Origin: a virus
Taxonomy: Duplodnaviria; Heunggongvirae; Uroviricota; Caudoviricetes
IMG/VR virus record: IMGVR_UViG_2529292919_000017
DNA length: 25,058 bases
Strand: one strand, 5' to 3'
Made by a program: the position numbers and the translations under genes. Positions 1-20,280 of this stretch are shown one piece after another; position 1 is the stretch's first letter; each line of letters begins with the position of its first letter. A model generated the notes under the pieces. The model was not told where the DNA came from, did no database searches, and worked only from the letters and a program-made list of their open reading frames with translations.

Positions 1-210
1 TTCAACGCCGCCGTTGTTGGGAATATCGCGGTATTCATTGCGCCATCCTGCTTTGCCGCAAACATCGTCCAGACGTTTCATGATTGCCCGGTTCGTGACA
101 TAAGCCAGCACCATAGCCCACACCTTGCCATCGCGTGTTTTACCGCTTTGCTGTATTCGCCATTCGATATCTTCAGGGCTGAATGGCTCATCGAATTTGT
201 TCAAATCCAT
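1..210 (-). CDS. Rad52/22-family-like single-strand annealing protein, N-terminal part (gene runs off the left edge)
   Basis: ATG at 210-208 with GAGGTG Shine-Dalgarno just upstream (revcomp of 211-220). Open frame to position 1 translates MDLNKFDEPFSPEDIEWRIQQSGKTRDGKVWAMVLAYVTNRAIMKRLDDVCGKAGWRNEY... The family call rests on remembered motif pattern only. It sits where bet/exo lie in lambda. Confidence 0.45.
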   Translation of the reverse strand, partial: MDLNKFDEPFSPEDIEWRIQQSGKTRDGKVWAMVLAYVTNRAIMKRLDDVCGKAGWRNEYRDIPNNGGVE

Positions 211-218
211 AATTCACC

Positions 219-389
219 TCAGAATGGACACGGCCCAAGGAAATAACGCTGATTTAATACTTCGACTCGGGACAAATTAAGGCATACCCGCATTCCTTCG
301 CGGTCGCCATTATGGCGATACCAGAGAGCTTTCTGCGTGTACATGCGTCTCTGTAACTTGCTCTCCTTTACTGTGGTTGCAAGTGACAT
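219..389 (-). CDS. small hypothetical protein (about 56 aa)
   Basis: ATG at 389-387 with AGGAGA Shine-Dalgarno upstream; translation MSLATTVKESKLQRRMYTQKALWYRHNGDREGMRVCLNLSRVEVLNQRYFLGPCPF. Below the ORF-track length cutoff. Overlaps the alternative frame at 310..468. Confidence 0.3.
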   Translation of the reverse strand: MSLATTVKESKLQRRMYTQKALWYRHNGDREGMRVCLNLSRVEVLNQRYFLGPCPF

Positions 390-468
390 GAATATCTCCT
401 TCGTTACCGATTAATTCTTTCATCTGACGAATGAATTCTTCGTCTGAGCAGTTATCTGTAAAACTCAT
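310..468 (-). CDS. alternative small hypothetical ORF (52 aa), start overlapping the kil-like stop
   Basis: ATG 468-466 shares the ATGA with the TGA of the upstream kil-like ORF; translation MSFTDNCSDEEFIRQMKELIGNEGDIHVTCNHSKGEQVTETHVHAESSLVSP. Mutually exclusive in part with 219..389; I cannot decide which is real from sequence alone. Confidence 0.25.
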   Translation of the reverse strand: MSFTDNCSDEEFIRQMKELIGNEGDIHVTCNHSKGEQVTETHVHAESSLVSP

Positions 469-617
469 TTCCTGCGATACCACGGAAGGTTGATAGCTGA
501 TTTCATCGCTTTATTTGCTTCAAGCCACATTTTGGAATCACCAATAAATCTGGCTATTACTGCTTTGTTCTGTGCAGCACGAAGCATCTGGTGATTGATG
601 GCTATTTCATTGCGCAT
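465..617 (-). CDS. Kil-like small protein (50 aa)
   Basis: ATG 617-615 with GGAGG Shine-Dalgarno (revcomp of 620-628); translation MRNEIAINHQMLRAAQNKAVIARFIGDSKMWLEANKAMKSAINLPWYRRK. The FIGD-KM motif and the position downstream of cIII recall lambda Kil, from memory. Confidence 0.45.
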   Translation of the reverse strand: MRNEIAINHQMLRAAQNKAVIARFIGDSKMWLEANKAMKSAINLPWYRRK

Positions 618-736
618 AACGCCTCCAGTTGTTTCTTTGCTGCTCTGATTAATTGTTTAACTCGGCGTGATAATTCAGATTCGTGCGGGTAGAAAGCGGA
701 CATGACGCCGCTACCCGCGAGCTGAAAGTGCATCAT
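602..736 (-). CDS. cIII: cIII-like protease inhibitor (44 aa)
   Basis: ATGATG at 736-731 preceded by AAGGAG; translation MMHFQLAGSGVMSAFYPHESELSRRVKQLIRAAKKQLEALCAMK has the same pattern as the central region of lambda cIII. The ORF track extends it to 811, but the internal start has the strong Shine-Dalgarno. Confidence 0.6.
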   Translation of the reverse strand: MMHFQLAGSGVMSAFYPHESELSRRVKQLIRAAKKQLEALCAMK

Positions 737-811
737 GGGTAACTCCTTATATTTGATTGCATAACGAAAACGCCTCGAGTGAAGCGTTATTGGTATGCGG
801 TAAAGCCGCAC

Positions 812-1180
812 TCAGGCGGCCTTGATAGTCATATCATCTGAATCAAATATTCCTGATGTATCGATATCGGTAATTCTTATTCCTTCACTACCATCCATTG
901 GAGGCCATCCTTCCTGACCATTTCCATCATCCCAGTCGAACTCACAAACAACACCATATGCATTTAAGTCTTTCGAAATTGCTATAAGCAGAGCATGTTG
1001 CGCCAGCATGATTAATACAGCATTTAATACAGAGCCGTGTTTATTGAGTCGGTATTCAGAGTCTGACCAGAAATTATTAATCTGGTGAAGTTTTTCCTCT
1101 GTCATTACGTCATGGTCGATTTCAATTTCTATTGATGCTTTCCAGTCGTAATCAATGATGTATTTTTTGATGTTTGACAT
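812..1180 (-). CDS. hypothetical protein, strongly acidic (many D/E, especially the C-terminal third)
   Basis: 122-aa ORF in the track; ATG 1180-1178 with GAGGAT Shine-Dalgarno; lies in the pL operon between N and cIII. Confidence 0.6.
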   Translation of the reverse strand: MSNIKKYIIDYDWKASIEIEIDHDVMTEEKLHQINNFWSDSEYRLNKHGSVLNAVLIMLAQHALLIAISKDLNAYGVVCEFDWDDGNGQEGWPPMDGSEGIRITDIDTSGIFDSDDMTIKAA

Positions 1181-1200
1181 CTATTCATATCCTCATAGAT

Positions 1201-1226
1201 AAAAAATCGCCCTCACATTAGAGGGC
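1201..1226 (-). terminator. rho-independent terminator on the minus strand (tL-like)
   Basis: Stem GCCCTC (1209-1214) / GAGGGC (1221-1226) with 6-nt loop; the plus-strand A-run 1201-1206 is a U-run after the stem on the minus-strand transcript. Confidence 0.5.
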
Positions 1227-1288
1227 AAAGAAGATTTCCAATAATCAGAACAAGTCGGCTCCTGTTTAGTTACGAGCGACATTGCTCC

Positions 1289-1316
1289 GTGTATTCACTC
1301 GTTGGAATGAATACAC
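1289..1316 (-). other. 9-bp perfect stem-loop just downstream of the 156-aa gene
   Basis: GTGTATTCA (1289-1297) pairs with TGAATACAC (1308-1316); no U-run, so more likely an RNA processing or stability element than an intrinsic terminator. Confidence 0.3.
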
Positions 1317-1330
1317 AGTGCTTATTCGTA

Positions 1331-1801
1331 CTAATAAAACACCCAATTTTCTGTTTCTTGGTTGTGTCCAAAGTTATATTCAATATCTGGTGTTGATGTA
1401 TCAATATTCTTCATCCCATCAACAAGAGTTGATACAACAGCCAAATCTTGTTTGATTCTCATCAAATGGTATTTCTTTCGGCGCAATAAACTTTCAATGG
1501 CAAGTTTCTTCGTCGGGAATGCAAAAGATCTTTCTGCATTTTTTGCTACTTTCTTAATTGCATATCTATTTCTCCTTTGTTTCCATTCCTGTAACCACTG
1601 ATTTGGTGCTGGTTTAAAATTAACAATCCAATGCGCAGGAACCAACCATGCATAATGCTCTGTCTGATGAAAAGCTATATATTGAAGTGCGAATATTTTG
1701 ATCCCATCTTCTTCAACTGTCGCCTGGAATCTCCAGAAAACAGGCATTCCATCATGTTCAGTTTCTGATTCAGGAAAAGGTACGCTCCATGATTTTGTCA
1801 T
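1331..1801 (-). CDS. hypothetical protein (156 aa), first gene downstream of N in the pL operon
   Basis: ORF track; ATG 1801-1799 preceded by GAGGTGA (revcomp of 1802-1811); AT-rich coding sequence. Confidence 0.6.
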   Translation of the reverse strand: MTKSWSVPFPESETEHDGMPVFWRFQATVEEDGIKIFALQYIAFHQTEHYAWLVPAHWIVNFKPAPNQWLQEWKQRRNRYAIKKVAKNAERSFAFPTKKLAIESLLRRKKYHLMRIKQDLAVVSTLVDGMKNIDTSTPDIEYNFGHNQETENWVFY

Positions 1802-1859
1802 ATCTCACCTCAAATAAGTGGTTTGCTGCCTAATTTCATTTTCTGGCGACCAACACAAG

Positions 1860-2132
1860 TCATCTTGCTGTCAGTTGTTTGGATTTCCGGTAGCCTGCCG
1901 CGTAAAGAGCTACGTTCGGAAGACAAGTTGAGCCTTCATATTTTCTGGTCAACGTTGTCAGTGTTATTACTTCTGCTCTCATTGCTGGTTTGCGCTTGCA
2001 TTGCAAGACCACTCGAGAGGGGGTTGGTCTGTGTAGCTTGTCGGAGCTAATCGCCTCCTGACTTTGCAGGTTTGCGCGACGAGCTCTACGACGAGAAGCT
2101 GAGGTGCCTTTAAATTCTGTTTTTCTGGACAT
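1860..2132 (-). CDS. N: N-like transcription antiterminator (90 aa)
   Basis: Internal ATG 2132-2130 of the 118-aa track ORF, preceded by GGGAGGAA. N-terminal arginine-rich motif TSASRRRARRANL. C-terminus LPNVALYAAGYRKSKQLTAR resembles the P22 gene 24 C-terminus as I recall it. nutL lies in its leader. Confidence 0.7.
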   Translation of the reverse strand: MSRKTEFKGTSASRRRARRANLQSQEAISSDKLHRPTPSRVVLQCKRKPAMRAEVITLTTLTRKYEGSTCLPNVALYAAGYRKSKQLTAR

Positions 2133-2230
2133 AGATTCCTCCCGAATAAACTTTGGTGATGCAATCTCGAAGCTCCTCCTGAGACGGTTGCTTCGGCATT
2201 GCATCCCACAGCTCATGTGGTTGGGTGATC

Positions 2231-2276
2231 TGGCTTTTCAGCCACGTAGTCGAGAGTTCGACGTTGTTTAAAGAGC
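2231..2276 (-). promoter_or_regulatory. nutL (boxA and boxB)
   Basis: On the minus strand boxA is GCTCTTTAA (revcomp of 2268-2276) and boxB is the hairpin TGGCTGAAAAGCCA (2231-2244). Same boxB loop (TGAAAA) as the nutR candidate on the other arm. Confidence 0.5.
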
Positions 2277-2321
2277 CTGCCAGTCTGTTCCGTTTGGCTT
2301 CCAGCGTCCTGCTGACGGTTA

Positions 2322-2420
2322 AATAGTACGATATGTACTTTATTGGGTTAATACTATTTGTTCTAAAATAGGGTGATTTTTTATAACACTTTGTATTTAA
2401 TAGTGTTGTTTTTTAGCGTG
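2322..2420 (-). promoter_or_regulatory. candidate OL operators and pL promoter
   Basis: Inverted repeat AGTAC-GATAT-GTACT at 2325-2339 resembles the OR-side TACATATTGTA; further AT-rich dyads CTATTT..AAATAG and AACACT..AGTGTT. A possible pL on the minus strand is -35 TTAACC / -10 TACTAT flanking the dyad. Exact sites not established. Confidence 0.3.
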
Positions 2421-2538
2421 GGTGTATCGCCTCGGCGATGTAAGGAGAGATCAGAATTGCGTGGTTTAGTGAGTTGTATCTATTTATTTTTCAATAAATA
2501 CATTTGGTTATGTGTCTTTAGGTGGGGGCGTGAGGCAA

Positions 2539-2562
2539 AGAAAACCCGGCGCTGAGGCCGGG
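2539..2562 (-). terminator. rho-independent terminator ending the cI / DinD-like transcript
   Basis: Stem CCCGGC (2545-2550) / GCCGGG (2557-2562), loop GCTGAG, followed on the minus strand by a U-rich run (plus A-run 2539-2544); 9 bp past the stop of the 280-aa gene. Confidence 0.5.
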
Positions 2563-2570
2563 GTATGCAT

Positions 2571-3413
2571 TTATGGTTTTTTTTGGTCGTGCTTTGCTAG
2601 GGCTTTATGAGTTTTCTTAATGCTGCTTCTAACTTTCTGAATTTTTTCTTGGGAAAGTTTTATGTTTTCAGGGGCTGTTCCAGTGTTAGAAATCATTACA
2701 TTGCGAACAGATCTCCCTACGGTCTCAGCAGCATTCTCTAGTTGAGACTGTCCCTTCAGGTTCTGGTTTCTGATTCTTGCTTCTGTCTGTGTAATTCTGA
2801 ATATATTGGCCGCGAGCTCTTCGCTTCCCATGAAGTCAAGCATCGTTCCATCTTTTTTAGTTAGGCCTTTTCGAGCTTTCAACTGTGAGAGATTCATATT
2901 GTACATCCCACGGTAGCCCGCATTTTGAAATAGACCATAGTCGACTACTCCGTGTTTATGGGCTACATGACTGAGAGTTTTCTCTCTAGATGTAATCTCG
3001 CCACGCAAATAAACTCGATTAACTGCGTCATGGTTATGATATGTAGTGTGTATTTCTGCTGCGAGCCCAGCAAAATAAGCTTGTGCATTTGCAACTTTTT
3101 GATTGCTGATGTCACCATTCATTACAATCAGATAACAAGCGAAACGAGTTAATTTAAAGTCATTTTTCGCATTTTCTGAAGGCATCTGGATGAAGTTATC
3201 GTATACAGGGATATCGAGGCTCACACATACAGATGTAGCTTTGTTAATGGCTTTCAATATCTGATCCATGCCATTATATCCAAGCATCATCGCTAAATCA
3301 GATGCAAACCAATAGGTAACACCGTTTTCTCTAGCGAAATCATCAAATGTTAACTGTGATGTGTCATCGAAAACAGTAATTTGCCTACTCATATCACACC
3401 CGAACTTACTCAT
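2571..3413 (-). CDS. DinD-like protein (DNA-damage-inducible protein D family) in the rexAB position
   Basis: 280-aa ORF; ATG 3413-3411 with AAGGGA Shine-Dalgarno. Motifs RFACYLIVMNGD and FMGSEELAANIFRITQTEARIR match my recollection of E. coli DinD (RYACYLVVQNGD, HMGSTELAANLFRATQTEEKLR). Family call needs a search. Confidence 0.5.
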   Translation of the reverse strand: MSKFGCDMSRQITVFDDTSQLTFDDFARENGVTYWFASDLAMMLGYNGMDQILKAINKATSVCVSLDIPVYDNFIQMPSENAKNDFKLTRFACYLIVMNGDISNQKVANAQAYFAGLAAEIHTTYHNHDAVNRVYLRGEITSREKTLSHVAHKHGVVDYGLFQNAGYRGMYNMNLSQLKARKGLTKKDGTMLDFMGSEELAANIFRITQTEARIRNQNLKGQSQLENAAETVGRSVRNVMISNTGTAPENIKLSQEKIQKVRSSIKKTHKALAKHDQKKP

Positions 3414-3493
3414 CGATTTTCCCTTATATTAATATAATGTGGATAGTTTGTCGCCAACTCGCTAAAGTTATTCATTATGAGGTTTGCCATCCA

Positions 3494-4153
3494 TCACCCA
3501 AACGTCTCTTCAGGCCACTGACTAGCGATAACTTTCCCCACAACGGAACAACTCTCATTGCATGGGATCATTGGGTATTGTGGATTTAGTGGCTGTAGAA
3601 ACACCTGACCGCTATCCCTGATCAGTTTCTTGAAGGTAAATTCATCACCACCAAGTCTGGCTATGCAGAAATCGCCGGGCTCAACAGCTTGCTCTGGGTC
3701 AACCAGAATTAACATCCCGTCAGGAAAACTAGGTTTGGAACCTGTTGGGGCGGTCATTGAGTTACCTTCAACCTCAAGCCAGAATGCAGAGTCACTGGCT
3801 TTTTTGGTTGTGCTTACCAATCTCTCCGCATCGCCTTTGGTAAAGGTTCTGAGTTCTGGAGAGAACATCCCAGCCTGAACATGAGAAAAAACAGGGTACT
3901 CATATTGTTTTTTAACTGGGGCCGATGAGTATTCGCCAACAGGTGAAAATGTCCCGTCGTGGTTGAATGATATGTTATCAATACCAAGGTATTTAAACAC
4001 CACACCAATATCACTAAGAGATGGATGACGAGATCCGCGCAACCAGTGTCCAATCCCACCCTGCGTCATACCTAGCTCTTCGGCTAACTTCTCTTGAGTT
4101 ATGCCGAGCTCTTTCATTCTGGATCTAGCCAGTTCATACCATTTCATTTTCAT
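3494..4153 (-). CDS. cI: cI repressor: lambda-type C-terminal LexA-like (S24) domain with a non-lambda N-terminal HTH domain
   Basis: From [25 protein letters not shown] to the end (…[17 protein letters not shown]) the protein matches lambda cI as I recall it, apart from one residue; the N-terminus [37 protein letters not shown] is different. Start taken at ATG 4153 or 4147; the longer track ORF (to 4315) would overlap cro and is unlikely. Confidence 0.9.
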
Positions 4154-4263
4154 GTCCTTATTATTACGCTCTGTATTGCAACCATCCATGCACAATGTGT
4201 ATTTTTGCTTGCATTCAAAAAGTACATATTGTATTTTTTCTTCATGGTTACTATGGAGGGCAT
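4154..4263. promoter_or_regulatory. OR region with divergent pRM/pR and candidate operators
   Basis: Intergenic between divergent cI and cro. Dyads CACAATGTG (4191-4199) and TACATATTGTA (4223-4233). pR candidate: -35 TTGCAT (4209-4214), 17-bp spacer, -10 TATTTT (4232-4237), with the second dyad in the spacer and -10. Confidence 0.55.
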
Positions 4264-4479
4264 ATGAGCAACCTACGAAAATATCGAGAGTCACTGAATA
4301 TCTCTCAAACAACACTTGCTAAGGCAGTTGGATGCACACAGGGAGCTATCGGACATTGGGAATCTGGTCGTCGCTTCCCAGACCTTAAAACATGCCGTGC
4401 TCTTGTTGCGTGTCTAAACAAGTTAGGCGCAAAAGTAAGTCTTGATGACGTGTTCCCGCCGGAGCACAAAGCCGCTTAA
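4264..4479 (+). CDS. cro: Cro-like HTH repressor (71 aa)
   Basis: ATG 4264 preceded by GGAGGG; translation [71 protein letters not shown] is an XRE-type HTH. The track ORF from 4195 overlaps the cI start. Confidence 0.75.
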
Positions 4480-4489
4480 TAAGCGGAGC

Positions 4490-4534
4490 CGCTCTTTGTA
4501 ACAACGGACATTCGTCCTACGTCGCTGAAAAGCG
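4490..4534 (+). promoter_or_regulatory. nutR (boxA CGCTCTTTG, boxB hairpin CGCTGAAAAGCG)
   Basis: boxA at 4490-4498 is close to lambda boxA CGCTCTTA; boxB stem-loop at 4523-4534. A perfect inverted repeat CCGCTTA/TAAGCGG (4472-4487) straddles the cro stop codon. Confidence 0.55.
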
Positions 4535-4620
4535 AGCCCCAAGATATCTGACCAACTAAGGCCATATGCGTTTCCACGCATACCTTTCAACTAACTATTC
4601 ACTATTGGAAATCTTAAGAA

Positions 4621-4917
4621 ATGGAACAAACAAGTTACAGCAAACTATCACAGCGTGACGTTGATCGCGCAGAAACAGATTTACTCATCAACCTGTCAAC
4701 GCTTACCCAGCGTGGTCTGGCAAAGATGATTGGCTGTCATGAATCGAAGATAAGCAGAACGGACTGGCGGTTTATTGCTTCGGTCTTGTGTGCTTTCGGA
4801 ATGGCATCAGACATCAGTCCAATTAGCAGGGCTTTTAAGTATGCGCTTGATGGAATCACAAAGAAAAAACGCCCGGCGGCAACCGAGCGTTCTGAACAAA
4901 TCCAGATGGAGTTCTGA
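4621..4917 (+). CDS. cII: cII transcriptional activator
   Basis: 98-aa ORF; C-terminus KKRPAATERSEQIQMEF is identical to lambda cII as I recall it; central HTH region LAKMIGCHESKISR. Confidence 0.9.
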   Translation: MEQTSYSKLSQRDVDRAETDLLINLSTLTQRGLAKMIGCHESKISRTDWRFIASVLCAFGMASDISPISRAFKYALDGITKKKRPAATERSEQIQMEF

Positions 4918-5297
4918 GGTCATTACTGGATCTATCAACAGGAGTCATTATGACAAATACAGCAAAAATACTCAACTTCGGCAGAGGTAACTTTGCCGGA
5001 CAGGAGCGTAATGTGGCAGATCTCGATGATGGTTACGCCAGACTATCAAATATGCTGCTTGAGGCTTATTCAGGCGCAGATCTGACCAAGCGACAGTTTA
5101 AAGTGCTGCTTGCCATTCTGCGTAAAACCTATGGGTGGAATAAACCAATGGACAGAATCACCGATTCTCAACTTAGCGAGATTACAAAGTTACCCGTCAA
5201 ACGGTGCAATGAAGCCAAGTTAGAACTCGTCAGAATGAATATTATCAAGCAGCAAGGCGGCATGTTTGGACCAAATAAAAACATCTCAGAATGGTGT

Positions 5298-5378
5298 ATC
5301 CCTCAAAACGAGGGAAAATCCCCTAAAACGAGGGATAAAACATCCCTCAAATTGGGGGATTGCTATCCCTCAAAACAG
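5298..5378. repeat. ori-lambda iterons (O-binding sites), the fourth cut by the IS
   Basis: ATCCCTCAAAACGAGGGA (5298-5315), ATCCCCTAAAACGAGGGA (5318-5335), ATCCCTCAAATTGGGGGA (5342-5359), ATCCCTCAAAACAG (5365-5378) continuing as GGGGA after the IS; AT-rich ori segment follows at 6940-6985. Confidence 0.75.
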
Positions 5379-6928
5379 CTGTCTCTTGATCAGATCTCCT
5401 GATCAAGAGACTTCATCACCAGGTAACCCTCAACCATATCCTGAAGTCTGAACCAGCCATCCCACATGACTACCCAACCGGGGCGACCGGTGCGTTTGCT
5501 GTCATGCCATCGCCCCAGTTTCGCCAGTTTCAGACAGGCCCATTTCAGTGTCGGCATCTGTGACGGAAGCGGTTTTCCTTCCAGCTTAACCCACAGCAGT
5601 TTCCACTCTGTCGGCGTCAGTACTTTCTCACAGCTGTCATTTTGTGTTTCTTCACTGATACCGCCCTGCCGCAGGCCCAGCACCCGCACCGCGATAAACG
5701 CCTTGATAACCACCATGCGCTCGAGGTTATCCCGGGTCTGCATTCGCAGCGATTCCACACATGTACCACCACTTTTCCACGCCTTGTGGTATTCCTCTAT
5801 CAGCCAGCGTCGCTCGTAATGGCTGACGATACGTCGCGCATCGGCGGCACTCGCCACTTTTTCTGACGTCAGCAGATGCCAGCAGGCGCCGTCCTCTGCC
5901 TGCTCCCGGCAACAGACATACGTGAGCGGGAGCGCCTGGCCGCTGTTGTCGGGATTTTTTATGCTGACTTCGCTGTAACTGATGAACATCCGGGCCTGGC
6001 GGGCTGCCCGCCCGCCTTTTTGCATCACATTCAGCGTGTGGCTTCCCGCAGTTGCCAGGACTTCCGGCAGTTCGAAGAGCTTGCCGGGTGCTTCTTCCAG
6101 CCGGCGATTCTGTGCTGCACGCACCACGAAGCGCTGCCCGTGGCTGACTTTATAATGCAGGTAATGCCAGATATCCGCTTCCCGGTCACAGACAGTGATT
6201 ACCCGTTTCTGTATCTCCCCCAGCCGTTCGGCCATGCGCTCCGAAGCCTGCTGCCAGCGGTAACTTTCTTTTTCTTCATAGGGACGTTCTTTTCGCTGGT
6301 GCTTAACACCGTAGGTGTCCGTGGCACGACTCCAGCGCTGCTGTTCGATAAGACCGACTGGCAGGGCGCTGTCGGGGGCGTACATCAGGACAGAGTGAGC
6401 CAGCAGCCCGCGCGTCTTCGGGTTAGTGGTGGTATTCCCCAGGTCATCAGATGCCGTACTGTGACTGAAGTTAATGGTGGTGGTGTCTTCCAGCGCGAGG
6501 AGCAGCGGATGAGCCTCACATGCCCTTACAGTGGCGGTAAATCCGGCTTCGGCAATGGCTTGCGGGGACACAGACGGGTTACGTATCAGGCGGTACGCAC
6601 CTTCAACCTGAGCAGTGGACTGGGATGATTTCACAATAGAAAGACCTGCATGCTGAGCGAGAGAAGAGGCCAGTGACACAAGGCGTCGTGTACGACGCGG
6701 ATCACCGAGACGGGCATGTCCAAACTGCTCGTTAGCCCATGAATAACAATCAGAAAGTACCATAACAGACCCGAAGAAAATGAAATATAAGAGAAGATCA
6801 ACGGGTGAGGAAAAAGTTCAAAAAATCGCTGCCGGGGAGGAAGGAAACTACCGGATGGAAAGAGTCCCCCTAAAGCAGACTGACAGACATCACAAATCCC
6901 CGGGTGGGGATTTGTGTATAAGAGACAG
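5379..6928 (-). mobile_element. IS50-like insertion sequence (IS4 family)
   Basis: Left end CTGTCTCTTGATCAGATCT (5379-5397) is identical to the Tn5/IS50 inside end; right end reads CTGTCTCTTATACACAAAT in revcomp (to 6928), close to the IS50 outside end. Flanked by direct repeat CAAAACAG (5371-5378 and 6929-6936). Confidence 0.85.
5390..6763 (-). CDS. IS50-like DDE transposase
   Basis: 457-aa ORF; N-terminus ...LGDPRRTRRLVSLASSLAQHAGLSIVKSS...EGAYRLIRNPSVSPQAIAEAGF parallels Tn5 transposase (LGDPRRTARLVNVAAQLAKY...EGAYRFIRNPNVSAEAIRKAG) from memory; C-terminus reaches the inside end as in IS50. Confidence 0.85.
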   Translation of the reverse strand: MVLSDCYSWANEQFGHARLGDPRRTRRLVSLASSLAQHAGLSIVKSSQSTAQVEGAYRLIRNPSVSPQAIAEAGFTATVRACEAHPLLLALEDTTTINFSHSTASDDLGNTTTNPKTRGLLAHSVLMYAPDSALPVGLIEQQRWSRATDTYGVKHQRKERPYEEKESYRWQQASERMAERLGEIQKRVITVCDREADIWHYLHYKVSHGQRFVVRAAQNRRLEEAPGKLFELPEVLATAGSHTLNVMQKGGRAARQARMFISYSEVSIKNPDNSGQALPLTYVCCREQAEDGACWHLLTSEKVASAADARRIVSHYERRWLIEEYHKAWKSGGTCVESLRMQTRDNLERMVVIKAFIAVRVLGLRQGGISEETQNDSCEKVLTPTEWKLLWVKLEGKPLPSQMPTLKWACLKLAKLGRWHDSKRTGRPGWVVMWDGWFRLQDMVEGYLVMKSLDQEI

Positions 6929-7403
6929 CAAAACAGGGGGACACAAAAGACACTATTACAAAAGAAAAAAGAAAAGATTATTCGTCCGAGAATTCTGGCG
7001 AATCCTCTGACCAGCCAGAAAACGATCTTTCTGTGGTTAAACCGGATGCTGCAATTCAGAGCTGCAGCAAGTGGGGAACAGCAGAAGACCTGACCGCCGC
7101 AGAGTGGATGTTTGACATGGTGAAGACCATCGCGCCATCAGCCAGAAAACCGAATTTTGCTGGGTGGGCTAACGATATCCGCCTGATGCGTGAACGTGAC
7201 GGACGTAACCACCGCGATATGTGTGTGCTTTTCCGCTGGGCCTGCCAGGACAACTTCTGGTCCGGTAACGTGCTGAGTCCGGCCAAACTCCGCGACAAGT
7301 GGACCCAGCTCGAAATCAACCGTAACAAGCAACAGGCAGGCGTGACAGCCAGCAAACCAAAACTCGACCTGACAAACACTGACTGGATTTACGGGGTGGA
7401 TTT

Positions 7404-8105
7404 ATGAAAAACATCGCCGCACAGATGGTTAACTTTGACCGTGAGCAGATGCGTCGGATCGCCAACAACATGCCGGAACAGTACGACGAAAAGCCGCAGG
7501 TACAACAGGTAGCGCAGATCATCAACGGTGTGTTCAGCCAGTTACTGGCAACTTTCCCGGCGAGCCTGGCTAACCGTGACCAGAACGAACTGAACGAAAT
7601 CCGCCGCCAGTGGGTTCTGGCTTTCCGGGAAAACGGGATCACCACAATGGAACAGGTTAACGCAGGAATGCGCGTAGCCCGTCGGCAGAATCGACCATTT
7701 CTGCCATCACCCGGGCAGTTTGTTGCATGGTGCCGGGAAGAAGCATCCGTTATCGCCGGACTGCCAAACGTCAGCGAGCTGGTTGATATGGTTTACGAGT
7801 ATTGCCGGAAGCGAGGCCTGTATCCGGATGCGGAGTCTTATCCGTGGAAATCAAACGCGCACTACTGGCTGGTTACCAACCTGTATCAGAACATGCGGGC
7901 CAATGCGCTTACTGATGCGGAATTACGCCGTAAGGCCGCAGATGAGCTTGTCCATATGACTGCGAGAATTAACCGTGGTGAGTCGATCCCTGAACCAGTA
8001 AAACAACTTCCTGTCATGGGCGGTAGACCTCTAAATCGTGCACAGGCTCTGGCGAAGATCGCAGAACTCAAAGCTAAGTTCGGACTGAAAGGAGCAAGTG
8101 TATGA
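7404..8105 (+). CDS. P: replication protein P (DnaB loader)
   Basis: 233-aa ORF beginning MKNIAAQMVNFDREQMRRIANNMPEQYDEKPQVQQVAQIINGVF, matching lambda P from memory; start overlaps the O stop. Confidence 0.9.
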   Translation: MKNIAAQMVNFDREQMRRIANNMPEQYDEKPQVQQVAQIINGVFSQLLATFPASLANRDQNELNEIRRQWVLAFRENGITTMEQVNAGMRVARRQNRPFLPSPGQFVAWCREEASVIAGLPNVSELVDMVYEYCRKRGLYPDAESYPWKSNAHYWLVTNLYQNMRANALTDAELRRKAADELVHMTARINRGESIPEPVKQLPVMGGRPLNRAQALAKIAELKAKFGLKGASV

Positions 8106-8392
8106 CGGGCAAAGAGGCAATTATTCATTACCTGGGGACGCATAATAGCTTCTGTGCGCCGGACGTTGCCGAGCTAACAGGCGCAACAGTAACCAGCATA
8201 AATCAGGCCGCGGCTAAAATGGCACGGGCAGGTCTTCTGGTTATCGAAGGTAAGGTCTGGCGAACGGTGTATTACCGGTTTGCTACCAAGGAAGAACGGG
8301 AAGGAAAGATGAGCACGAACCTAATTTTTAAGGAGTGTCGCCAGAGTGCCGCGATGAAACGGGTATTGGCGGTATATGGAGTTAAAAGATGA
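8102..8392 (+). CDS. ren: Ren
   Basis: 96-aa ORF MTGKEAIIHYLGTHNSFCAPDVAELTGATVTSINQAAAKMARAGLLVIEGKVW..., matching lambda Ren from memory; ATGA overlap with the P stop. Confidence 0.85.
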   Translation: MTGKEAIIHYLGTHNSFCAPDVAELTGATVTSINQAAAKMARAGLLVIEGKVWRTVYYRFATKEEREGKMSTNLIFKECRQSAAMKRVLAVYGVKR

Positions 8393-8418
8393 CCATCTAC
8401 ATCACTGAGCTAATAACA

Positions 8419-8445
8419 GGCCTGCTGGTAATCGCAGGCCTTTTT
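8419..8445 (+). terminator. rho-independent terminator (tR2-like)
   Basis: Stem GGCCTGC (8419-8425) / GCAGGCC (8434-8440), 8-nt loop, then TTTTT (8441-8445); between ren and the nin region. Confidence 0.55.
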
Positions 8446-8464
8446 ATTTGGGGGAGAGTAAATC

Positions 8465-8791
8465 GTGGCTGACTGGCAAATACCAATCATCATTCTTGCC
8501 GGAGCTTCGCTGGTTGCTGGCTTTATCCTGCTGAAGAAGCATAAAGACCGTGATCAAAAAGTCGAAGTTCTCTATGGGTATCCGGCGAACAGCACAACAT
8601 GGCTGACTATTTACCACTACCGAAAATCAGGCCGTTGGGTATTCGAATGGGATGATCTGTTTGCTGAAAAGCGACCAAAGTCATGGGGAGACATCAGCGA
8701 ATGCATGATGTTTGAAGAAAGAAAATCCGGCGCAACCCGAGAAGAGTTTAACGAAGCGTGGAGGCGATTAAGTGAGAGGGGGTATCAATGA
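8465..8791 (+). CDS. hypothetical nin-region protein with an N-terminal hydrophobic segment
   Basis: GTG start at 8465 after GGGGGAGAG; 108-aa ORF; N-terminal IPIIILAGASLVAGFILL looks like a membrane anchor. Confidence 0.5.
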   Translation: MADWQIPIIILAGASLVAGFILLKKHKDRDQKVEVLYGYPANSTTWLTIYHYRKSGRWVFEWDDLFAEKRPKSWGDISECMMFEERKSGATREEFNEAWRRLSERGYQ

Positions 8792-8813
8792 GCAGAATTA
8801 AGTCGAGGTAACA

Positions 8814-9260
8814 ATGAAGCAAATATACATGCTTCGCAACGAAGCAATCAGAAACAACGCCATAGACGCAATACTCTCACTTCCGATCGACGACAAGTCA
8901 CCTCACGAAGTCCACATTAAAGAACCCAGGCGGAGCAATCCTCAAAACCGCCTTATGTGGGCGTTATTGCAGGACGTATCACGTCAGGTGCTTTGGCATG
9001 GAAAGAGACTTGCGCCGGAGGACTGGAAAGATCTGTTCACTGCCCTGTGGCTTAAGACCAAAAAACTGGAGCAACGAAGTGCGCCTGGTATCGACGGTGG
9101 CGTTGTCATGCTTGGCGTGCGTACCAGCAAAATGCGAAAGGCCAGCATGACTGAGCTTATCGAAATCATGTTCTGGTTCGGCTCAGAGCGCAACGTGCGG
9201 TGGAGTGATGACTCCCGGCGAGAGTATGAATGGTCACAACGAAAAGGTAGGGCTGCATGA
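8814..9260 (+). CDS. ninB: NinB-family recombination protein
   Basis: 148-aa ORF; motifs NRLMWALLQDVSRQVLWHGKRL and VRWSDDSRREYEW resemble lambda NinB from memory. Confidence 0.7.
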   Translation: MKQIYMLRNEAIRNNAIDAILSLPIDDKSPHEVHIKEPRRSNPQNRLMWALLQDVSRQVLWHGKRLAPEDWKDLFTALWLKTKKLEQRSAPGIDGGVVMLGVRTSKMRKASMTELIEIMFWFGSERNVRWSDDSRREYEWSQRKGRAA

Positions 9261-9784
9261 CTATCAAATCAAATACGCCAGCACACGACAAGGACTGCTG
9301 GCAAACGCCGCTTTGGCTTTTTGATGCACTGGATATTGAGTTTGGATTCTGGCTGGATTCGGCAGCGAGCGACAAAAATGCTCTGTGCGCTCACTGGCTA
9401 ACTGAGGCTGACGACGCGCTAAATTCTGAGTGGGTAAGCCACGGTGCAATCTGGAATAACCCACCGTACAGCAATATCAGGCCGTGGGTGGAAAAAGCCG
9501 CTGAGCAGTGTATACAACAACGACAGACGGTAGTGATGCTTGTGCCAGAGGATATGTCAGTCGGATGGTTCAGCAAGGCTCTGGAGAGTGTCGACGAAGT
9601 TCGTATTATCACTGATGGACGGATTAATTTTGTCGAACCATCGACAGGACTGGAGAAGAAGGGAAACAGCAAAGGTTCCATGCTGCTGATTTGGCGACCG
9701 TTCATCAGTTCTCGACGGATGTTTACTACTGTATCCAAAGCGGCATTGATGGCGATCGGGCAGGGCGTCAGGAGGGCAGCATGA
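9257..9784 (+). CDS. dam: phage-type DNA N6-adenine methyltransferase
   Basis: 175-aa ORF with the catalytic NPPY motif (IWNNPPYSN) and the conserved N-terminal [18 protein letters not shown] block typical of the phage Dam family. Confidence 0.8.
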
Positions 9785-9963
9785 GACGACAGCGACGAAG
9801 TTTCACCGACATCATCTGCGAAAACTGCAAATACCTTCCAACGAAACGCTACAGAAATAAACGCAAGCCAATCCCAAAAGAATCTGACGTAAAAACCTTC
9901 AACTACACGGCTCACCTGTGGGATATCCGGTGGCTAAGACATTGTGCGAGGAAAACAAGGTGA
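9781..9963 (+). CDS. ninE: NinE-like protein (60 aa)
   Basis: ATG 9781 overlaps the dam stop; [60 protein letters not shown] resembles lambda NinE from memory. Confidence 0.6.
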
Positions 9964-10130
9964 TTGACCAAAATCGAAGTTACGAACAAGAAAGCGTCGA
10001 GCGAGCTTTAACGTGCGCTAACTGCGGTCAGAAGCTGCATGTGCTGGAAGTTCACGTGTGTGAGCACTGTTGCGCAGAACTTATGAGCGATCCGAATAGC
10101 TCAATGTACGAGGAAGAAGACGATGAATGA
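9960..10130 (+). CDS. ninF: NinF-like small cysteine-rich protein
   Basis: GTG 9960 overlapping the ninE stop (or in-frame ATG at 9918); [56 protein letters not shown] has a CxxC...CxxCC pattern. Confidence 0.55.
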
Positions 10131-10845
10131 GTTAATAAATGGCAATGCCATAAAAATGACAAGCATTGAAATCGCTGAGTTGGTTGGTAAGCGTCATGAC
10201 AATGTGAAACGTACCATCGAAACGCTGGCTAAAAATGGTGTTATCCGGCTTCCTCAAATTGAGGATTGTGGAAGAATCAATGGGTTAGGCTTAAATCAAA
10301 GTTTTTGTGTGTATGTATTCGAAGGCGAACAAGGAAAGCGAGACAGTATTGTCGTTGTAGCCCAGTTGTCGCCGGAATTCACGGCTCGCCTTGTTGACCG
10401 TTGGCGAGAGCTTGAAGAAGCTGCGGTTAATATCCCAAAAACGCTACCAGAAGCGTTGCGCCTTGCTGCTGACCTTGCTGAGCAGAAAATGCAACTGGAA
10501 AACCAGCTAGCAATTGCCGCACCTAAAGTTGAGTTTGCCGATCGCGTTGGCGAGGCCAGCGGAATTTTGATTGGAAACTTTGCAAAGGTTGTTGGAATTG
10601 GTCCAAACAAACTGTTTGCGTGGATGCGCGATCACAAAATCCTTATTGCTTCAGGTTCCCGGCGCAATGTGCCAATGCAGGAATATATGGATCGCGGCTA
10701 TTTCACAGTGAAAGAAACAGCGGTCAACACAAATCACGGAATACAGATATCGTTCACCACAAAAATCACCGGGTGTGGTCAACAGTGGCTGACCAGAAAG
10801 CTGCTCGATAACGGAATGCTGAAAGTAACAGGGGAGGCTGCTTAA
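10123..10845 (+). CDS. Rha-family N-terminal domain fused to a KilAC (ANT) C-terminal domain; putative antirepressor
   Basis: 240-aa ORF; N-terminal MTSIEIAELVGKRHDNVKRTIETL is the Rha-type motif; C-terminal FADRVGEASGILIGNFAKVVGIGPNKLFAWMRDHKIL...QEYMDRGYF is the KilAC-type motif. Domain call from memory of the family patterns. Confidence 0.65.
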   Translation: MNELINGNAIKMTSIEIAELVGKRHDNVKRTIETLAKNGVIRLPQIEDCGRINGLGLNQSFCVYVFEGEQGKRDSIVVVAQLSPEFTARLVDRWRELEEAAVNIPKTLPEALRLAADLAEQKMQLENQLAIAAPKVEFADRVGEASGILIGNFAKVVGIGPNKLFAWMRDHKILIASGSRRNVPMQEYMDRGYFTVKETAVNTNHGIQISFTTKITGCGQQWLTRKLLDNGMLKVTGEAA

Positions 10846-11135
10846 TGGCTAACCTACGCAAAGAAGCTCGCGGCAGAGAATGCCAGGTACGTATTTACGG
10901 CGTATGCAATGGCAACCCTGAAACTACAGTTCTGGCACATTACCGGATGGCTGGAATTTGCGGAACGGGAATGAAGCCTGACGACCTGATCGGCGCATGG
11001 GCTTGTAGCGCGTGTCACGATGAAATCGACCGACGCACCCATAACCTCGACAACAAAGACGCCAGACTTTACCACCTCGAAGGCGTGATCAGGACGCAGG
11101 CGATACTGCTGAAGGAGGGGAAGATTAAGCCATGA
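10845..11135 (+). CDS. ybcO: YbcO-like (DUF1364) putative nuclease
   Basis: 96-aa ORF MANLRKEARGRECQVRIYGVCNGNPETTVLAHYRM...CSACHDEIDRRTH, closely resembling DLP12 YbcO from memory. Confidence 0.6.
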   Translation: MANLRKEARGRECQVRIYGVCNGNPETTVLAHYRMAGICGTGMKPDDLIGAWACSACHDEIDRRTHNLDNKDARLYHLEGVIRTQAILLKEGKIKP

Positions 11136-11494
11136 ACGAATATCAGTTTGTGCTTCCATACCCGCCGTCGGTGAATACCTACTGGCGAAGACGGGGAGGC
11201 CAATACTACATCAGCGATAAAGGCCAGAAATACCGAAAAGACGTTCAGCAAATCATTCGCCAACTCAAGTTAGACATTTTCACCAAATCACGACTCCGTA
11301 TCAAAGTCATCGCAGACGTTCCAGACTCCCGCCGCCGCGACCTCGACAACATCCTGAAAGGTTTACTCGACTCCCTTATCCACGCCGGATTTGCGGAAGA
11401 CGACGAGCAATTCGATGACATTCGCGTAATTCGTGGTGTGAAAGTACCAGGCGGAAGGCTTGGAATAAAAATCACCGAACTGGAGAACACATGA
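11132..11494 (+). CDS. rusA: RusA Holliday-junction resolvase
   Basis: 120-aa ORF; PYPPSVNTYW and DSRRRDLDNILKGLLDSL match the RusA catalytic region; ATGA overlap with the preceding gene. Confidence 0.85.
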   Translation: MNEYQFVLPYPPSVNTYWRRRGGQYYISDKGQKYRKDVQQIIRQLKLDIFTKSRLRIKVIADVPDSRRRDLDNILKGLLDSLIHAGFAEDDEQFDDIRVIRGVKVPGGRLGIKITELENT

Positions 11495-11625
11495 ACAAAG
11501 CATTCGAACGATATATGCGCCAGCGTTATGGCAATCGCTACGATCTTACCCGCGATGCTTACGGCTTCTACTGTCGTGAGGTTGTGAAACGAATGTTTGA
11601 AGTGTGGTGTCATTGCAAAGGATAG
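11491..11625 (+). CDS. ylcG: YlcG-like small protein (44 aa)
   Basis: ATG 11491 overlaps the rusA stop; MNKAFERYMRQRYGNRYDLTRDAYGFYCREVVKRMFEVWCHCKG; same position as ylcG between rusA and Q in DLP12. Confidence 0.5.
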   Translation: MNKAFERYMRQRYGNRYDLTRDAYGFYCREVVKRMFEVWCHCKG

Positions 11626-11636
11626 AGGGGAAGACG

Positions 11637-12260
11637 ATGAGACTCGAAAGCGTAGCTAAATTTCATTCGCCAAAAAGCCCGATGATGAGCGACTCACCAC
11701 GGGCCACGGCTTCTGACTCTCTTTCCGGTACTGATGTGATGGCTGCTATGGGGATGGCGCAATCACAAGCCGGATTCGGAATGGCTGCATTCTGCGGTAA
11801 GCACGAACTCAGCCAGAACGACAAACAAAAGGCTATCAACTATCTGATGCAATTTGCACACAAGGTATCGGGGAAATACCGTGGCGTGGCAAAGCTTGAA
11901 GGAAATACTAAGGCAAAGGTACTGCAAGTGCTCGCAACATTCGCTTATGCGGATTATTGCCGTAGTGCCGCGACGCCGGGCGCAAGATGCAGAGATTGCC
12001 ACGGTACAGGCCGTGCGGTTGATATAGCCAAAACAGAGCAGTGGGGGATAGTTGCTGAGAAAGAGTGCGGAAGATGTAAAGGCGTCGGTTATTCAAGAAT
12101 GCCAGCAAGCGCCGCATATCGCGCTGTGACGATGCTAATCCCAAACCTTACCCAACCCACCTGGTCACGCACTGTTAAGCCGCTGTATGACGCTCTGGTT
12201 GTGCAATGCCACAAGGAAGAGTCAATCGCAGACAACATTTTGAATGCGATCACACGTTAG
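11637..12260 (+). CDS. Q: late-gene antiterminator Q (lambda type)
   Basis: ATG 11637 after AGAGGGGAAG; MRLESVAKFHSPKSPMMSDSPRATASDSLSGTDVMAAMGMAQSQAGFGMAAFCGKHELSQ... matches lambda Q from memory over 207 aa. Confidence 0.9.
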   Translation: MRLESVAKFHSPKSPMMSDSPRATASDSLSGTDVMAAMGMAQSQAGFGMAAFCGKHELSQNDKQKAINYLMQFAHKVSGKYRGVAKLEGNTKAKVLQVLATFAYADYCRSAATPGARCRDCHGTGRAVDIAKTEQWGIVAEKECGRCKGVGYSRMPASAAYRAVTMLIPNLTQPTWSRTVKPLYDALVVQCHKEESIADNILNAITR

Positions 12261-12302
12261 CGCCATGATTGCCACGGATGGCAACATATTAACGGCATAA
12301 TA

Positions 12303-12335
12303 TTGACTTTTTGAATAACTTTGGGGAAACTTGAC
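12303..12335 (+). promoter_or_regulatory. pR'-like late promoter with qut, -10 hexamer altered relative to lambda
   Basis: TTGACT (12303-12308), spacer TTTTGAATAACTTTGGG, then GAAACT (12326-12331), parallel to lambda TTGACT-TATTGAATAAAATTGGG-TAAATT; resemblance to lambda appears to stop just after TTGAC at about 12335. Confidence 0.45.
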
Positions 12336-12472
12336 ACCAATAATGGGCGTTTTTTACATGTCATTGATGAGTCTCAATAACCTGCCGCCGAGTAGTTTTT
12401 ATGCTCTGAATTGTATTTGTGTAGTAAACATGCTGACTGCAATGTAATAGAGTTTTTTTAGCCTGTAACCTC

Positions 12473-12502
12473 TTGACGGCATTGAATTGCTTTTGTTATG
12501 AG
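12473..12502 (+). promoter_or_regulatory. candidate sigma70 promoter for the membrane-protein gene
   Basis: -35 TTGACG (12473-12478), 17-18 bp spacer, -10 TTATGA/TATGAG (12496-12502), about 40 bp upstream of ATG 12540. Confidence 0.3.
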
Positions 12503-12539
12503 TTGTAAGCCAATGTTATCATCTTGTATTGGGGTGGTT

Positions 12540-13256
12540 ATGAAGGATGGTGCACTGCTCAGGAGTTCTTCACTTTTTATTGCCTACATGGGATGCCTTG
12601 GATGGGGGAGTGCTTATTTCTATGGATGGGGTACTTCTTTTTACTACGGCTTCCCATGGTGGATTGTAGGTGCAGGTGTTGATGATGTTGCCAGAAGTTT
12701 ATTTTTTGCAGTTATCGTCATTGCTATATTTCTTATCGGTTGGGGTATTGGTGTTGTATTCTTTTTCGCAGTGAAAAGAAAACATTCTATGCAAGAGCTA
12801 AATGTATTTCGCCTTTATTTTGCTGTGGAATTATTGTTTGTGCCGGCAATTATTGAGTTTTCTATATTGAGACAGAAGATTCAGGTACCTCTTTTGCTAC
12901 TGTCAGCAGCGATTGCGCTGGCGGTTACAATTTCGATAAGATCTTATGGGCGATTTTTATCGGTATCATGCTTCTATGATAAGCCATTTATAAAAAAACA
13001 TTTTTTTGAGATTGTGATGATTGCTTTTGTGGCATATTTCTGGTTTTTTTCATTTCTGACAGGATATTACAAACCGCAGTTTAAGAAAGAATATGAAATG
13101 ATTAATTATAATGATGGTTGGTATTATGTTCTTGCTCGTTATGATAATTGTCTGGTTTTGTCTACTTCTTTCAATGCAGGTAGTAAAAGGTTTGTCATTT
13201 ATCAATCAGCACAAGATAAGAATCTTCAGGTTGATATTGTAAGGACCAGAATTTAA
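12540..13256 (+). CDS. polytopic inner-membrane protein of unknown function (about 238 aa, 5-6 predicted TM helices plus a C-terminal soluble tail)
   Basis: ATG 12540 after GGGGTGG (track ORF starts at 12498). Hydrophobic segments LFIAYMGCLGWGSAYFYGW, LFFAVIVIAIFLIGWGIGVVFFFAV, LYFAVELLFVPAIIEFSIL, VPLLLLSAAIALAVTISI, FFEIVMIAFVAYFWFFSFLTGYY; C-terminal YNDGWYYVLARYDNCLVLSTSFNAGSKRFVIYQ. Visibly AT-rich relative to the flanking phage genes. Confidence 0.65.
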   Translation: MKDGALLRSSSLFIAYMGCLGWGSAYFYGWGTSFYYGFPWWIVGAGVDDVARSLFFAVIVIAIFLIGWGIGVVFFFAVKRKHSMQELNVFRLYFAVELLFVPAIIEFSILRQKIQVPLLLLSAAIALAVTISIRSYGRFLSVSCFYDKPFIKKHFFEIVMIAFVAYFWFFSFLTGYYKPQFKKEYEMINYNDGWYYVLARYDNCLVLSTSFNAGSKRFVIYQSAQDKNLQVDIVRTRI

Positions 13257-13686
13257 TTGGCTGCATAAATAATATTTTAAGTTGCAAGTTGGCTATTCGT
13301 AGGAATAGAACCTTAGGCATGCTGAATGCGTTTTCTGAACATTGTTTTATAAACTGTGTCTGCTTGCTGTTGTGATCCTGCTTTTAGTGATGGTGATGAT
13401 GGATTTCACCAGCAGGATAATGTTGGTACTGACTGATGGCGCTCTGGTCTGCGGCATTGTGGTATTGCTGTGGCCGATGATGAAAAAACAGAATGAATAA
13501 TCCTTGACTTTTTTGTTTACTGTTTATTAAAAAATCAACCGCATGGTGAATCCTCCTTGGAGGGGCTAAATGATCGAGTTTTAAGGGCACGTAGCGAGTT
13601 CTGTTTGATCATTGCAGAACTTAGCGGGAGGCGCCATGCGTACATCACTAATGTTATTTCCTTCTATCATTTTCCTTGTGAGTTCT

Positions 13687-13713
13687 GGCTGCGCATGGCG
13701 CGGCCTTTTTTTT
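13687..13713 (+). terminator. rho-independent terminator
   Basis: Stem GGCTGCGC (13687-13694) / GCGCGGCC (13698-13705) with one G-U pair, 3-nt loop, then eight T (13706-13713). Confidence 0.55.
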
Positions 13714-13894
13714 ATGACCTGCCACTGGCAGATGGTCATCCTGTGATTTGATTCCGGTTCCGGCTTTTTAACTCTGTTCCTGTACACGGGAGAAATTCTA
13801 TGTCGATTAATCGTTATGATATTGGTTACAAGAAGTACCACGTATTGTGTTGAGATAGAAAGCATGGTGCCAGAGGTAAATGCAGCAGCATAAT

Positions 13895-13942
13895 AAAAAA
13901 GAGCCAGCGCAGAAGAGAACGGGTAAAAGAGTCTGCGCTGGC
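13895..13942 (-). terminator. rho-independent terminator on the minus strand with no obvious upstream gene
   Basis: Perfect 11-bp stem GCCAGCGCAGA (13903-13913) / TCTGCGCTGGC (13932-13942) with an 18-nt loop; the plus-strand A-run 13895-13900 gives a U-run after the stem on the minus strand. Confidence 0.45.
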
Positions 13943-14058
13943 GTGGGGATATTCCCCGTGGAGAAATGATATGTAACACACATCGGGAACCTTTCTATAT
14001 AAACATTATCATTATTGTCAATCATAACAGTCAGGTATTATGACGTTTATGCATCAGG

Positions 14059-14086
14059 GCCATCAGGAATTAACTGGTGGCTTTTT
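14059..14086 (+). terminator. rho-independent terminator immediately upstream of the holin gene (tR'-like)
   Basis: Stem GCCATCAG (14059-14066) / CTGGTGGC (14074-14081) with one G-U pair, 7-nt loop, then TTTTT (14082-14086); about 35 bp before the S start. Confidence 0.5.
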
Positions 14087-14121
14087 ATTGTTGTCAGCTT
14101 CCGGATAACGGGAGACGGGGT

Positions 14122-14337
14122 ATGTACCAGATGGAAAAAATAACAACAGGTGTGTCATACACCACGTCAGCGGTGGGGACGGGATACTGGCTACTGCAGT
14201 TGCTGGACAAAGTCTCCCCATCCCAGTGGGTGGCAATAGGCGTATTGGGTAGCCTGGTGTTTGGCTTGCTGACGTATCTGACAAACCTTTATTTCAAGAT
14301 TAAAGAAGATAAGCGTAAGGCTGCGAGAGGTGAATAA
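14122..14337 (+). CDS. S: holin S (phage-21 type, dual-start motif)
   Basis: ATG 14122 after GGGAGACGGGG; [45 protein letters not shown]... with two Met codons separated by YQ (antiholin/holin starts); matches the S21-type holin from memory. Confidence 0.85.
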
Positions 14338-15298: not shown

Positions 15299-15328
15299 TT
15301 TTTTTGCAAATCACAAAGTCAATTTAAT

Positions 15329-20261: not shown

Positions 20262-20280
20262 CCCGTTGTAAAGTGAGGAT

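Follow-up and report, generated by a model that had tools for sequence, protein, structure and literature searches.

What is lost when an insertion sequence (IS) lands in the replication origin of a prophage, and why should it land there at all? The question is raised by IMG/VR virus record IMGVR_UViG_2529292919_000017, a stretch of 25,058 nucleotides (hereafter the window) in which the replication gene O of a lambdoid prophage, together with the origin that lies within it, is interrupted by a Tn5-like element. Our answer, which we hold with high confidence, is that the element ISEc13 transposed into a torS-adjacent lambdoid prophage, that its target preference explains the choice of the fourth origin repeat (iteron 4), that the insertion duplicated 8 base pairs (bp), and that O and the origin were very probably lost with it. 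By its sequence, the host is a close relative of enteropathogenic Escherichia coli (EPEC) O127:H6 E2348/69. As first noted, the finding was textbook prophage decay by IS insertion, and the case adds one more example of a familiar kind of event caused by a known element.

The element spans positions 5379 to 6928 (1,550 bp), with its transposase on the minus strand. Over this full length it is 99.9% identical to copies in E2348/69 that are annotated as "IS4-like element ISEc13 family transposase", and the name ISEc13 (IS4 family, IS50 subgroup) is that given to the matching copies by the RefSeq/NCBI annotation pipeline. ISEc13 matches occur at about 30 places in E2348/69, and the window copy differs from one of these (L002) by 2 nucleotides, at window positions 5623 and 6050, and by one amino acid (V381I versus WP_000244358.1). 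The terminus at 5379 to 5397 on the plus strand (CTGTCTCTTGATCAGATCT) matches the inside end of Tn5 at 19 of 19 positions, while that at 6910 to 6928 on the minus strand (reverse complement CTGTCTCTTATACACAAAT) matches the outside end at 17 of 19. The Tn5 end sequences used for the matching, which we take to be established knowledge, were both found as strings in the text of Tn5 papers. These two termini are the only Tn5-type ends in the window, where 0.01 would be expected by chance. Both start with CTGTCTCTT, and together with the length of 1,550 bp this agrees with the definition of the IS50 subgroup (5′-CT ends, 1,350 to 1,550 bp; PMC2266710, Table 1).

The transposase gene (5390 to 6763, minus strand) encodes a Tn5-type DDE/YREK enzyme of 457 amino acids, and its stop codon (5390 to 5392) is overlapped by the inside end. 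The protein scores 514 bits against NCBIfam NF033590 (cut-off 160) and exceeds the cut-offs of the Pfam models Tnp_DNA_bind and DDE_Tnp_1, with Dimer_Tnp_Tn5 reaching 25.1 bits, just below its cut-off of 26.7. It aligns with structures of the Tn5 transposase over residues 6 to 453 (E = 5e-84), and the motifs EDTT, CDREAD, and RWxIEExHKAWK fall in register. On these sequence grounds the element is ISEc13, and the label "IS50-like" given in the preliminary description was correct. Thirteen other full-length ISEc13 loci (among L002 to L013 and L059 to L064, where two pairs represent one site in two assemblies) likewise run from CTGTCTCTTGATCAG to TATAAGAGACAG over 1,550 bp.

The preliminary description had also reported an 8-bp direct repeat on both sides of the element and a simple transposition free of rearrangement, and both points are borne out. 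The sequence CAAAACAG directly abuts the two ends of the IS as an exact repeat (5371 to 5378 and 6929 to 6936). Deletion of positions 5379 to 6936 restores the origin and an O gene of 900 nucleotides and 299 codons, as had been anticipated, whereas the frame is broken if the IS is removed alone or together with 9 bp. An uninterrupted allele, to be sought in related strains, was found by sequence comparison in the torS-adjacent lambdoid prophage of E2348/69. Window positions 1 to 5378 and 6929 to 19183 are collinear with this prophage at 99.9% identity, and the two flank alignments share precisely the 8 duplicated bp there, without any base added or altered. This indicates that a nearly isogenic prophage carries the site in unoccupied form. 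Over 17.6 kb, the window and this prophage differ only by 11 single-nucleotide polymorphisms (SNPs) and one 8-bp insertion or deletion.

Tn5-type transposases normally work with a fixed stagger, and the duplications made by Tn5 and IS50 are 9 bp long. The 8-bp repeat had for this reason been described as a small oddity, a view that did not survive comparison with other copies of the element. Among 14 other independent ISEc13 sites for which both flanks are available, 8 bp were duplicated at nine, 9 bp at three, 10 bp at one, and 11 bp at one; two further copies that lack any duplication are presumably recombinants. At the sites with 10 and 11 bp, the rebuilt empty site is 300/300 identical in thousands of genomes, so these longer duplications are real, and they exceed the range of 8 to 9 bp listed for the IS50 subgroup (PMC2266710, Table 1). 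Eight bp is the norm for ISEc13 and not a decayed 9-bp duplication. The competing explanation, in which the ninth base of a Tn5-style 9-bp duplication mutated later, could draw on the 9 bp made by Tn5/IS50 and on the three ISEc13 copies that also have 9 bp. It is already refuted by the restoration of the frame, which is obtained only when the IS and 8 bp are removed, and by the empty site of E2348/69, where the overlap is exactly 8 bp. Moreover, a 9-bp duplication matches in no register (TCAAAACAG versus CAAAACAGG), and nine other copies have exactly 8 bp, which leaves this explanation with practically no probability. At a site downstream of a tRNA-Pro gene that carries ISEc13 in two strains (L004 and L012), the target and orientation are the same and the duplication is 8 bp in one strain and 9 bp in the other, which can be explained by separate insertions or by a subsequent change of 1 bp.

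The insertion lies in the early-right operon of the prophage, which contains the repressor, cro, cII, O, P, ren, and nin genes. The restored O gene is identical to that of E2348/69 at 899 of 900 positions and 99.7% identical to O of phage 21; residues 22 to 115 of the protein match Pfam Phage_rep_O (PF04492, E = 1e-36), TIGR01610 (phage_O_Nterm) is matched with E = 1.5e-39, and a search of the PDB with the restored protein returned no relative. The positions of the iterons were mapped from the gpO protein_bind features of the phage 21 record OL657228.1, which places ITN1 at 5298 to 5315, ITN2 at 5318 to 5335, and ITN3 at 5342 to 5359. ITN4 is divided into a left part of 14 bp (ATCCCTCAAAACAG, 5365 to 5378) and a right part of 5 bp (GGGGA, 6937 to 6941). 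Two repeat families of the window (D1 and D9) agree with the phage 21 gpO sites, giving four dyad-symmetric iterons of 18 to 19 bp. The IS sits inside ITN4, after its 14th base, in keeping with the earlier placement of the insertion in the fourth O-binding iteron. Beyond the iterons lies the A+T-rich unwinding region of the origin (6942 to 6985, by direct reading), and the arrangement as a whole is that described for lambda-type origins (PMC3349717, PMC6022878).

The choice of this site can be compared with the targets used by ISEc13 elsewhere. The 14 sites give the consensus CCCCT, a spacer of 8 to 11 bp of any sequence, and AGGGG, with 8 bp as the commonest spacing. When each site is read as two arms, C is found at position −4 in 28 of 28 arms, at −2 in 27, and at −3 in 23, and T is found at −1 in 20; complementary C-rich and G-rich arms are present at 13 of the 14 sites. 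Ten sites are terminator-like intergenic dyads, located for example after lysP, fklB, rcnB, and tRNA-Pro or at ibs loci. The target in iteron 4 consists of ATCCCT, CAAAACAG, and GGGGAC in succession. ISEc13 would cut directly 3′ of the C-rich arm on each strand, and cuts placed next to CCCCT/AGGGG arms would account for the presence of most ISEc13 copies in terminator-like dyads or in dyads resembling repetitive extragenic palindromic (REP) elements.

The survey made use, as extra target sites, of the loci H31 to H41, whose matches reach a few bases into the flank. As insertions into iterons they were rejected, being chance matches at terminator-like intergenic sites. Elements that share the exact 33-nucleotide inside end (L014 to L058) were found in Serratia, Rahnella, Budvicia, Phytobacter, Scandinavium, Escherichia whittamii, and others, and these mostly follow the C-rich arm of REP-like palindromes of the form CCCTCTCCC...GGGAGAGGG. 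Such elements are widespread in Enterobacterales, and some are only 1,485 to 1,488 bp long. The targeting of palindromes and REP elements by insertion sequences, including ISRm22 of the IS4 family, is documented (PMC1525189).

A weight matrix was built from the 28 arms of the other sites, leaving out the window site, and was used to score the window after excision of the element. The real site ranked 6th of 93,888 position-by-spacing candidates (top 0.006%), which makes it the fifth-best of approximately 23,500 positions (p ~2e-4). Within the origin, the matrix placed iteron 4 above iterons 3, 1, and 2, and in iterons 1 and 2 the CCCT/AGGG arms are 7 and 6 bp apart, under the minimum spacing seen. 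The dyad that is bound by a dimer of O is, as far as the arms and their spacing tell, a mimic of the target preferred by ISEc13. These results leave little room for random insertion, with iteron 4 hit by coincidence. Tn5 itself inserts nearly at random, with only a weak target preference, and in line with such behavior 3 of the 14 ISEc13 copies in the survey are intragenic, and the arms are poor at one site (L003). The rank of iteron 4 under a matrix derived from other sites, the C found at −4 in every arm, and the use of the identical site in a diverged O allele (see below) all speak against coincidence, which we regard as improbable.

A model in which the IS recognizes the boundaries between stem and loop of a hairpin was also considered. 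As a sole rule, this model is ruled out by one site (L059), a terminator hairpin at which the 10-bp duplication extends 3 bp into either arm of the stem. The presence of stem base pairs inside the duplication indicates that the cuts follow the sequence arms rather than the boundary of the stem-loop.

The same junction was found in other records. The exact 150-residue fusion protein that results from the insertion (143 residues of O and 7 encoded by the IS) is present on 7 other public contigs, which together with the window represent at least four backgrounds of immunity and recombination genes. On one of these contigs (L066) the complete IS is present in the same orientation and with the same duplication, but the surrounding O is a different allele. 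Compared with the window, this contig differs at 3 of 429 nucleotides to the left of the IS, at 15 of 471 to the right, and at 4 of 1,550 within the IS, and the flanking SNPs closest to the element lie at distances of 82 bp on the left and 51 bp on the right. For this pair independent insertion is the simplest reading, so that on the sequences compared the site was probably hit more than once. The IS copy of L066 carries the bases of E2348/69 at 5623 and 6050 and has two private changes in addition.

Contig AIEY01000034.1 of draft assembly GCA_000249115.2 shows no difference from the window in a comparison of 6,375 bp; the 124-residue C-terminal fragment of O is on record and matches this contig, while the 76-residue open reading frame that spans the junction (6780 to 7010) is not on record. 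With a 300-nucleotide chimeric query at a coverage of at least 80%, the junction was absent in either orientation from 5,426 complete RefSeq E. coli genomes, and a scan of JGI metagenomes for junctions in either orientation gave 0 matches. The source is a draft assembly and iterons do break assemblies, as illustrated by O proteins truncated at ...CYPSN, which might suggest that a repeat was collapsed into the contig at the iterons. Such an artifact has next to no chance of being the explanation given the perfect target duplication at both junctions, the recovery of the same left junction in 7 data sets from NCBI, ENA, and Logan that were assembled independently, and the presence of both junctions in L066 and in a second contig, L078. 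The proteins ending in ...CYPSN were themselves considered as a second IS hotspot. This 142-residue form of O (62 contigs) was rejected in that role since it arises where a contig ends or a scaffold has a gap within the iterons. "Partial" O proteins of 141 to 174 residues (L073 to L077 and P0003 to P0014) number in the hundreds in public databases, and the 142-residue protein is the commonest of those examined.

Several considerations weigh against the reading given at the outset. The target rule is drawn from 14 sites and from one-sided flanks, and five of these sites came to light only since their left flank happened to resemble the query. Iteron 4 is outscored by four other positions in the window, all of them unoccupied. 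The target preference may already be recorded in the ISfinder entry for ISEc13. The loss of replication, discussed below, draws on lambda genetics. The orientation of the IS is the same in both well-resolved events, which with n = 2 is uninformative. Finally, three of the four prophage backgrounds (that of the window, L070, and L078, that of L068, and that of L071 and L072) share a 5′ part of O that is identical at every nucleotide, and these three could descend from one insertion moved by recombination.

Extended to all backgrounds, the last point becomes a rival account, in which one insertion gave rise to every copy of the O::ISEc13 allele and homologous recombination carried it into other lambdoid prophages. 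Recurrence of the junction would in that case be no evidence for a hotspot. The exchange of modules between lambdoid phages is well established, and the three backgrounds diverge only from 87 bp upstream of the start of O, which has the look of a mosaic boundary. Against a single origin stands the O allele of L066, L067, and L069, which differs on both sides of an IS that is itself nearly unchanged. To bring it there, recombination would have had to take place no further than 82 bp to the left and 51 bp to the right of the element. Moreover, the target preference, which is independent evidence, predicts repeated hits. We consider a single origin unlikely, and retain more than one insertion at iteron 4 as the preferred reading.

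With regard to its consequences, the insertion very likely abolished replication of the prophage. The 5′ part of O (4950 to 5378, plus strand, codons 1 to 143) contains the complete N-terminal origin-binding domain and continues into the IS as a truncated frame (4950 to 5402, plus strand) that adds 7 residues (LSLDQIS) before a stop codon. The 3′ part (6937 to 7407, plus strand, codons 144 to 299) has neither a start codon nor promoter-proximal translation. O would thereby be cut to a fragment of 150 residues that keeps the origin-binding domain and lacks the C-terminal half, which in lambda is known from genetics to contact P. Gene P itself, the helicase loader downstream of the insertion (7404 to 8105, plus strand), is intact as an open reading frame of 233 codons; it is annotated as "replication protein P" in E2348/69, and Pfam Phage_lambda_P is assigned to the same gene in L078. 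At the level of the origin, 1.56 kb now separates iterons 1 to 3 and one half-site from the A+T-rich region with the other half-site, and the full dyad of iteron 4 is kept at neither junction. We infer that the prophage lacks both its initiator and, in cis, its origin. Since the lesion of the origin would act in cis, O supplied by another prophage should not rescue replication.

This prediction has close counterparts in lambda, where the alleles ori98 and ti12 and the ilr insertions in O likewise affect ITN4 or O and where replication initiation is lost in cis and in trans (PMC6022878). The lambda alleles are laboratory deletions, point mutations, and insertions, while O::ISEc13 is a natural allele of an EPEC prophage with a predicted phenotype. 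The deletion of ITN4 (ori98) and insertions in O were recovered as replication-initiation-defective survivors of prophage induction (PMC6022878). If a defective prophage kills its host by replicating, knock-outs of this kind would survive, and, more speculatively, selection may have helped the allele persist.

A benefit to the host could in this way add to the mechanism of insertion and retain the allele, through the abolition of replicative killing by a prophage that has become unable to form particles, and possibly through hindrance of phages with the same origin by the O fragment and the iterons. The recovery of O insertions and of the ITN4 deletion among the survivors of defective lambda prophages fits this proposal, as does the inhibition of phages with a lambda replication module by plasmids carrying oop and ITN3-4 (PMC3349717). 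The loss of the morphogenesis genes of the prophage and the occurrence of the allele in several lineages point in the same direction. On the other side, the allele is rare, as its junction is found in 0 of 5,426 complete genomes, and the published inhibition depends on ITN3-4, of which ITN4 is split in this prophage. We regard a host benefit as rather unlikely.

A broader reading, which is put forward tentatively and as less probable than its negation, joins these elements. ISEc13 would be a Tn5-family element whose transposase has its strand-transfer positions set by the 5′-CCCCT arm of each strand, iteron 4 would be a recurrent hotspot at which origins are repeatedly disarmed, and replicative killing could select for the outcome. 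Strand-transfer positions set by the arms would explain the verified duplications of 8, 9, 10, and 11 bp, and the mimicry of the target by lambda-type O-binding iterons would make iteron 4 a recurrent hotspot. A relative of Tn5 with a variable stagger anchored to sequence arms would be mechanistically unusual in a well-understood transposase family. The dyad symmetry required by the initiator suggests that lambda-type origins are intrinsically vulnerable to ISEc13. In practical terms, a concrete landing rule for ISEc13 helps to foresee the inactivation of genes by the element in EPEC lineages with approximately 30 copies.

The insertion in O is one of several hits to a prophage that is decaying. 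The preliminary description was right about the insertion in iteron 4 and O, to which a second major lesion, the truncation of terL, has to be added. The terL gene (17131 to 19200) departs from the E2348/69 sequence at position 19183, 50 nucleotides before its end. At this point begins an IS66-type element, ISCro1 (19184 to 21883), with the ends GTAACCGGCTC and GAGTCGCTTAC. No target duplication was found for ISCro1 in a comparison of 8 bp on each side, where the flanks GAAGAAAA and AGATAAAA differ. From ISCro1 to position 25058 the window contains a type III effector locus of the nleB2/nleC/nleH/nleD type and not the portal, head, and tail genes. From the sequence, the part of the prophage beyond the end of terL appears to have been rearranged or deleted through ISCro1. 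For the purposes of annotation, this EPEC prophage should be recorded as having defects in replication as well as in morphogenesis. The single length difference from E2348/69 in the collinear part consists of 8 extra bp (GGCTGTCA) at 16407 to 16414, in non-coding DNA upstream of the small-terminase region; it was considered as the footprint of an excised IS and rejected, since only an imperfect local duplication is present.

In comparison with known systems, the window copy has the same termini as ISEc13 as annotated in E2348/69, from which it is 2 SNPs away, and only its location is new. ISEc13 resembles IS50 of Tn5 in having a transposase that is homologous over its full length, with the DDE and YREK residues aligned, and a gene that is read from the side of the outside end and has its stop codon in the inside end. 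The two elements also share GATC (Dam) sites in the inside end and a DnaA-box-like sequence, TTATACACA, in the outside end, where by direct reading it matches the DnaA-box consensus. Within positions 5379 to 5411, a third GATC lies in an inverted internal copy of the inside end of ISEc13. The retention of the GATC and DnaA-box-like sequences suggests that host regulation in the manner of IS50 may be conserved in ISEc13. The two elements differ in the length of the duplication (fixed at 9 bp in IS50/Tn5, 8 bp with a range of 8 to 11 bp in ISEc13), in the strength of the target preference (a weak consensus in Tn5, strong CCCCT/AGGGG arms in ISEc13), and in the size of the transposase (476 amino acids in Tn5, 457 in ISEc13). 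With the palindrome-targeting elements IS1397/ISKpn1, IS621, ISPpu9/10, and ISRm22, ISEc13 shares the use of mostly intergenic, dyad-symmetric sites; it differs from them in recognizing a short degenerate motif with variable spacing, in following no single repeat family, and in having some copies inside genes.

A further difference from IS50 is that perfect hairpins overlap both termini of ISEc13. The first has a stem of 13 bp formed by the inside end and its internal inverted copy (5381 to 5411, −13.5 kcal/mol, z = −5.4) and also covers the stop codon of the transposase gene, and the second has a stem of 11 bp just inside the outside end (6891 to 6916, −12.5 kcal/mol, z = −5.3). Both fold far better than shuffled sequence. 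Candidate roles for these structures are to block read-in transcription, to stabilize the 3′ end of the messenger RNA, or to mask the ends of the element.

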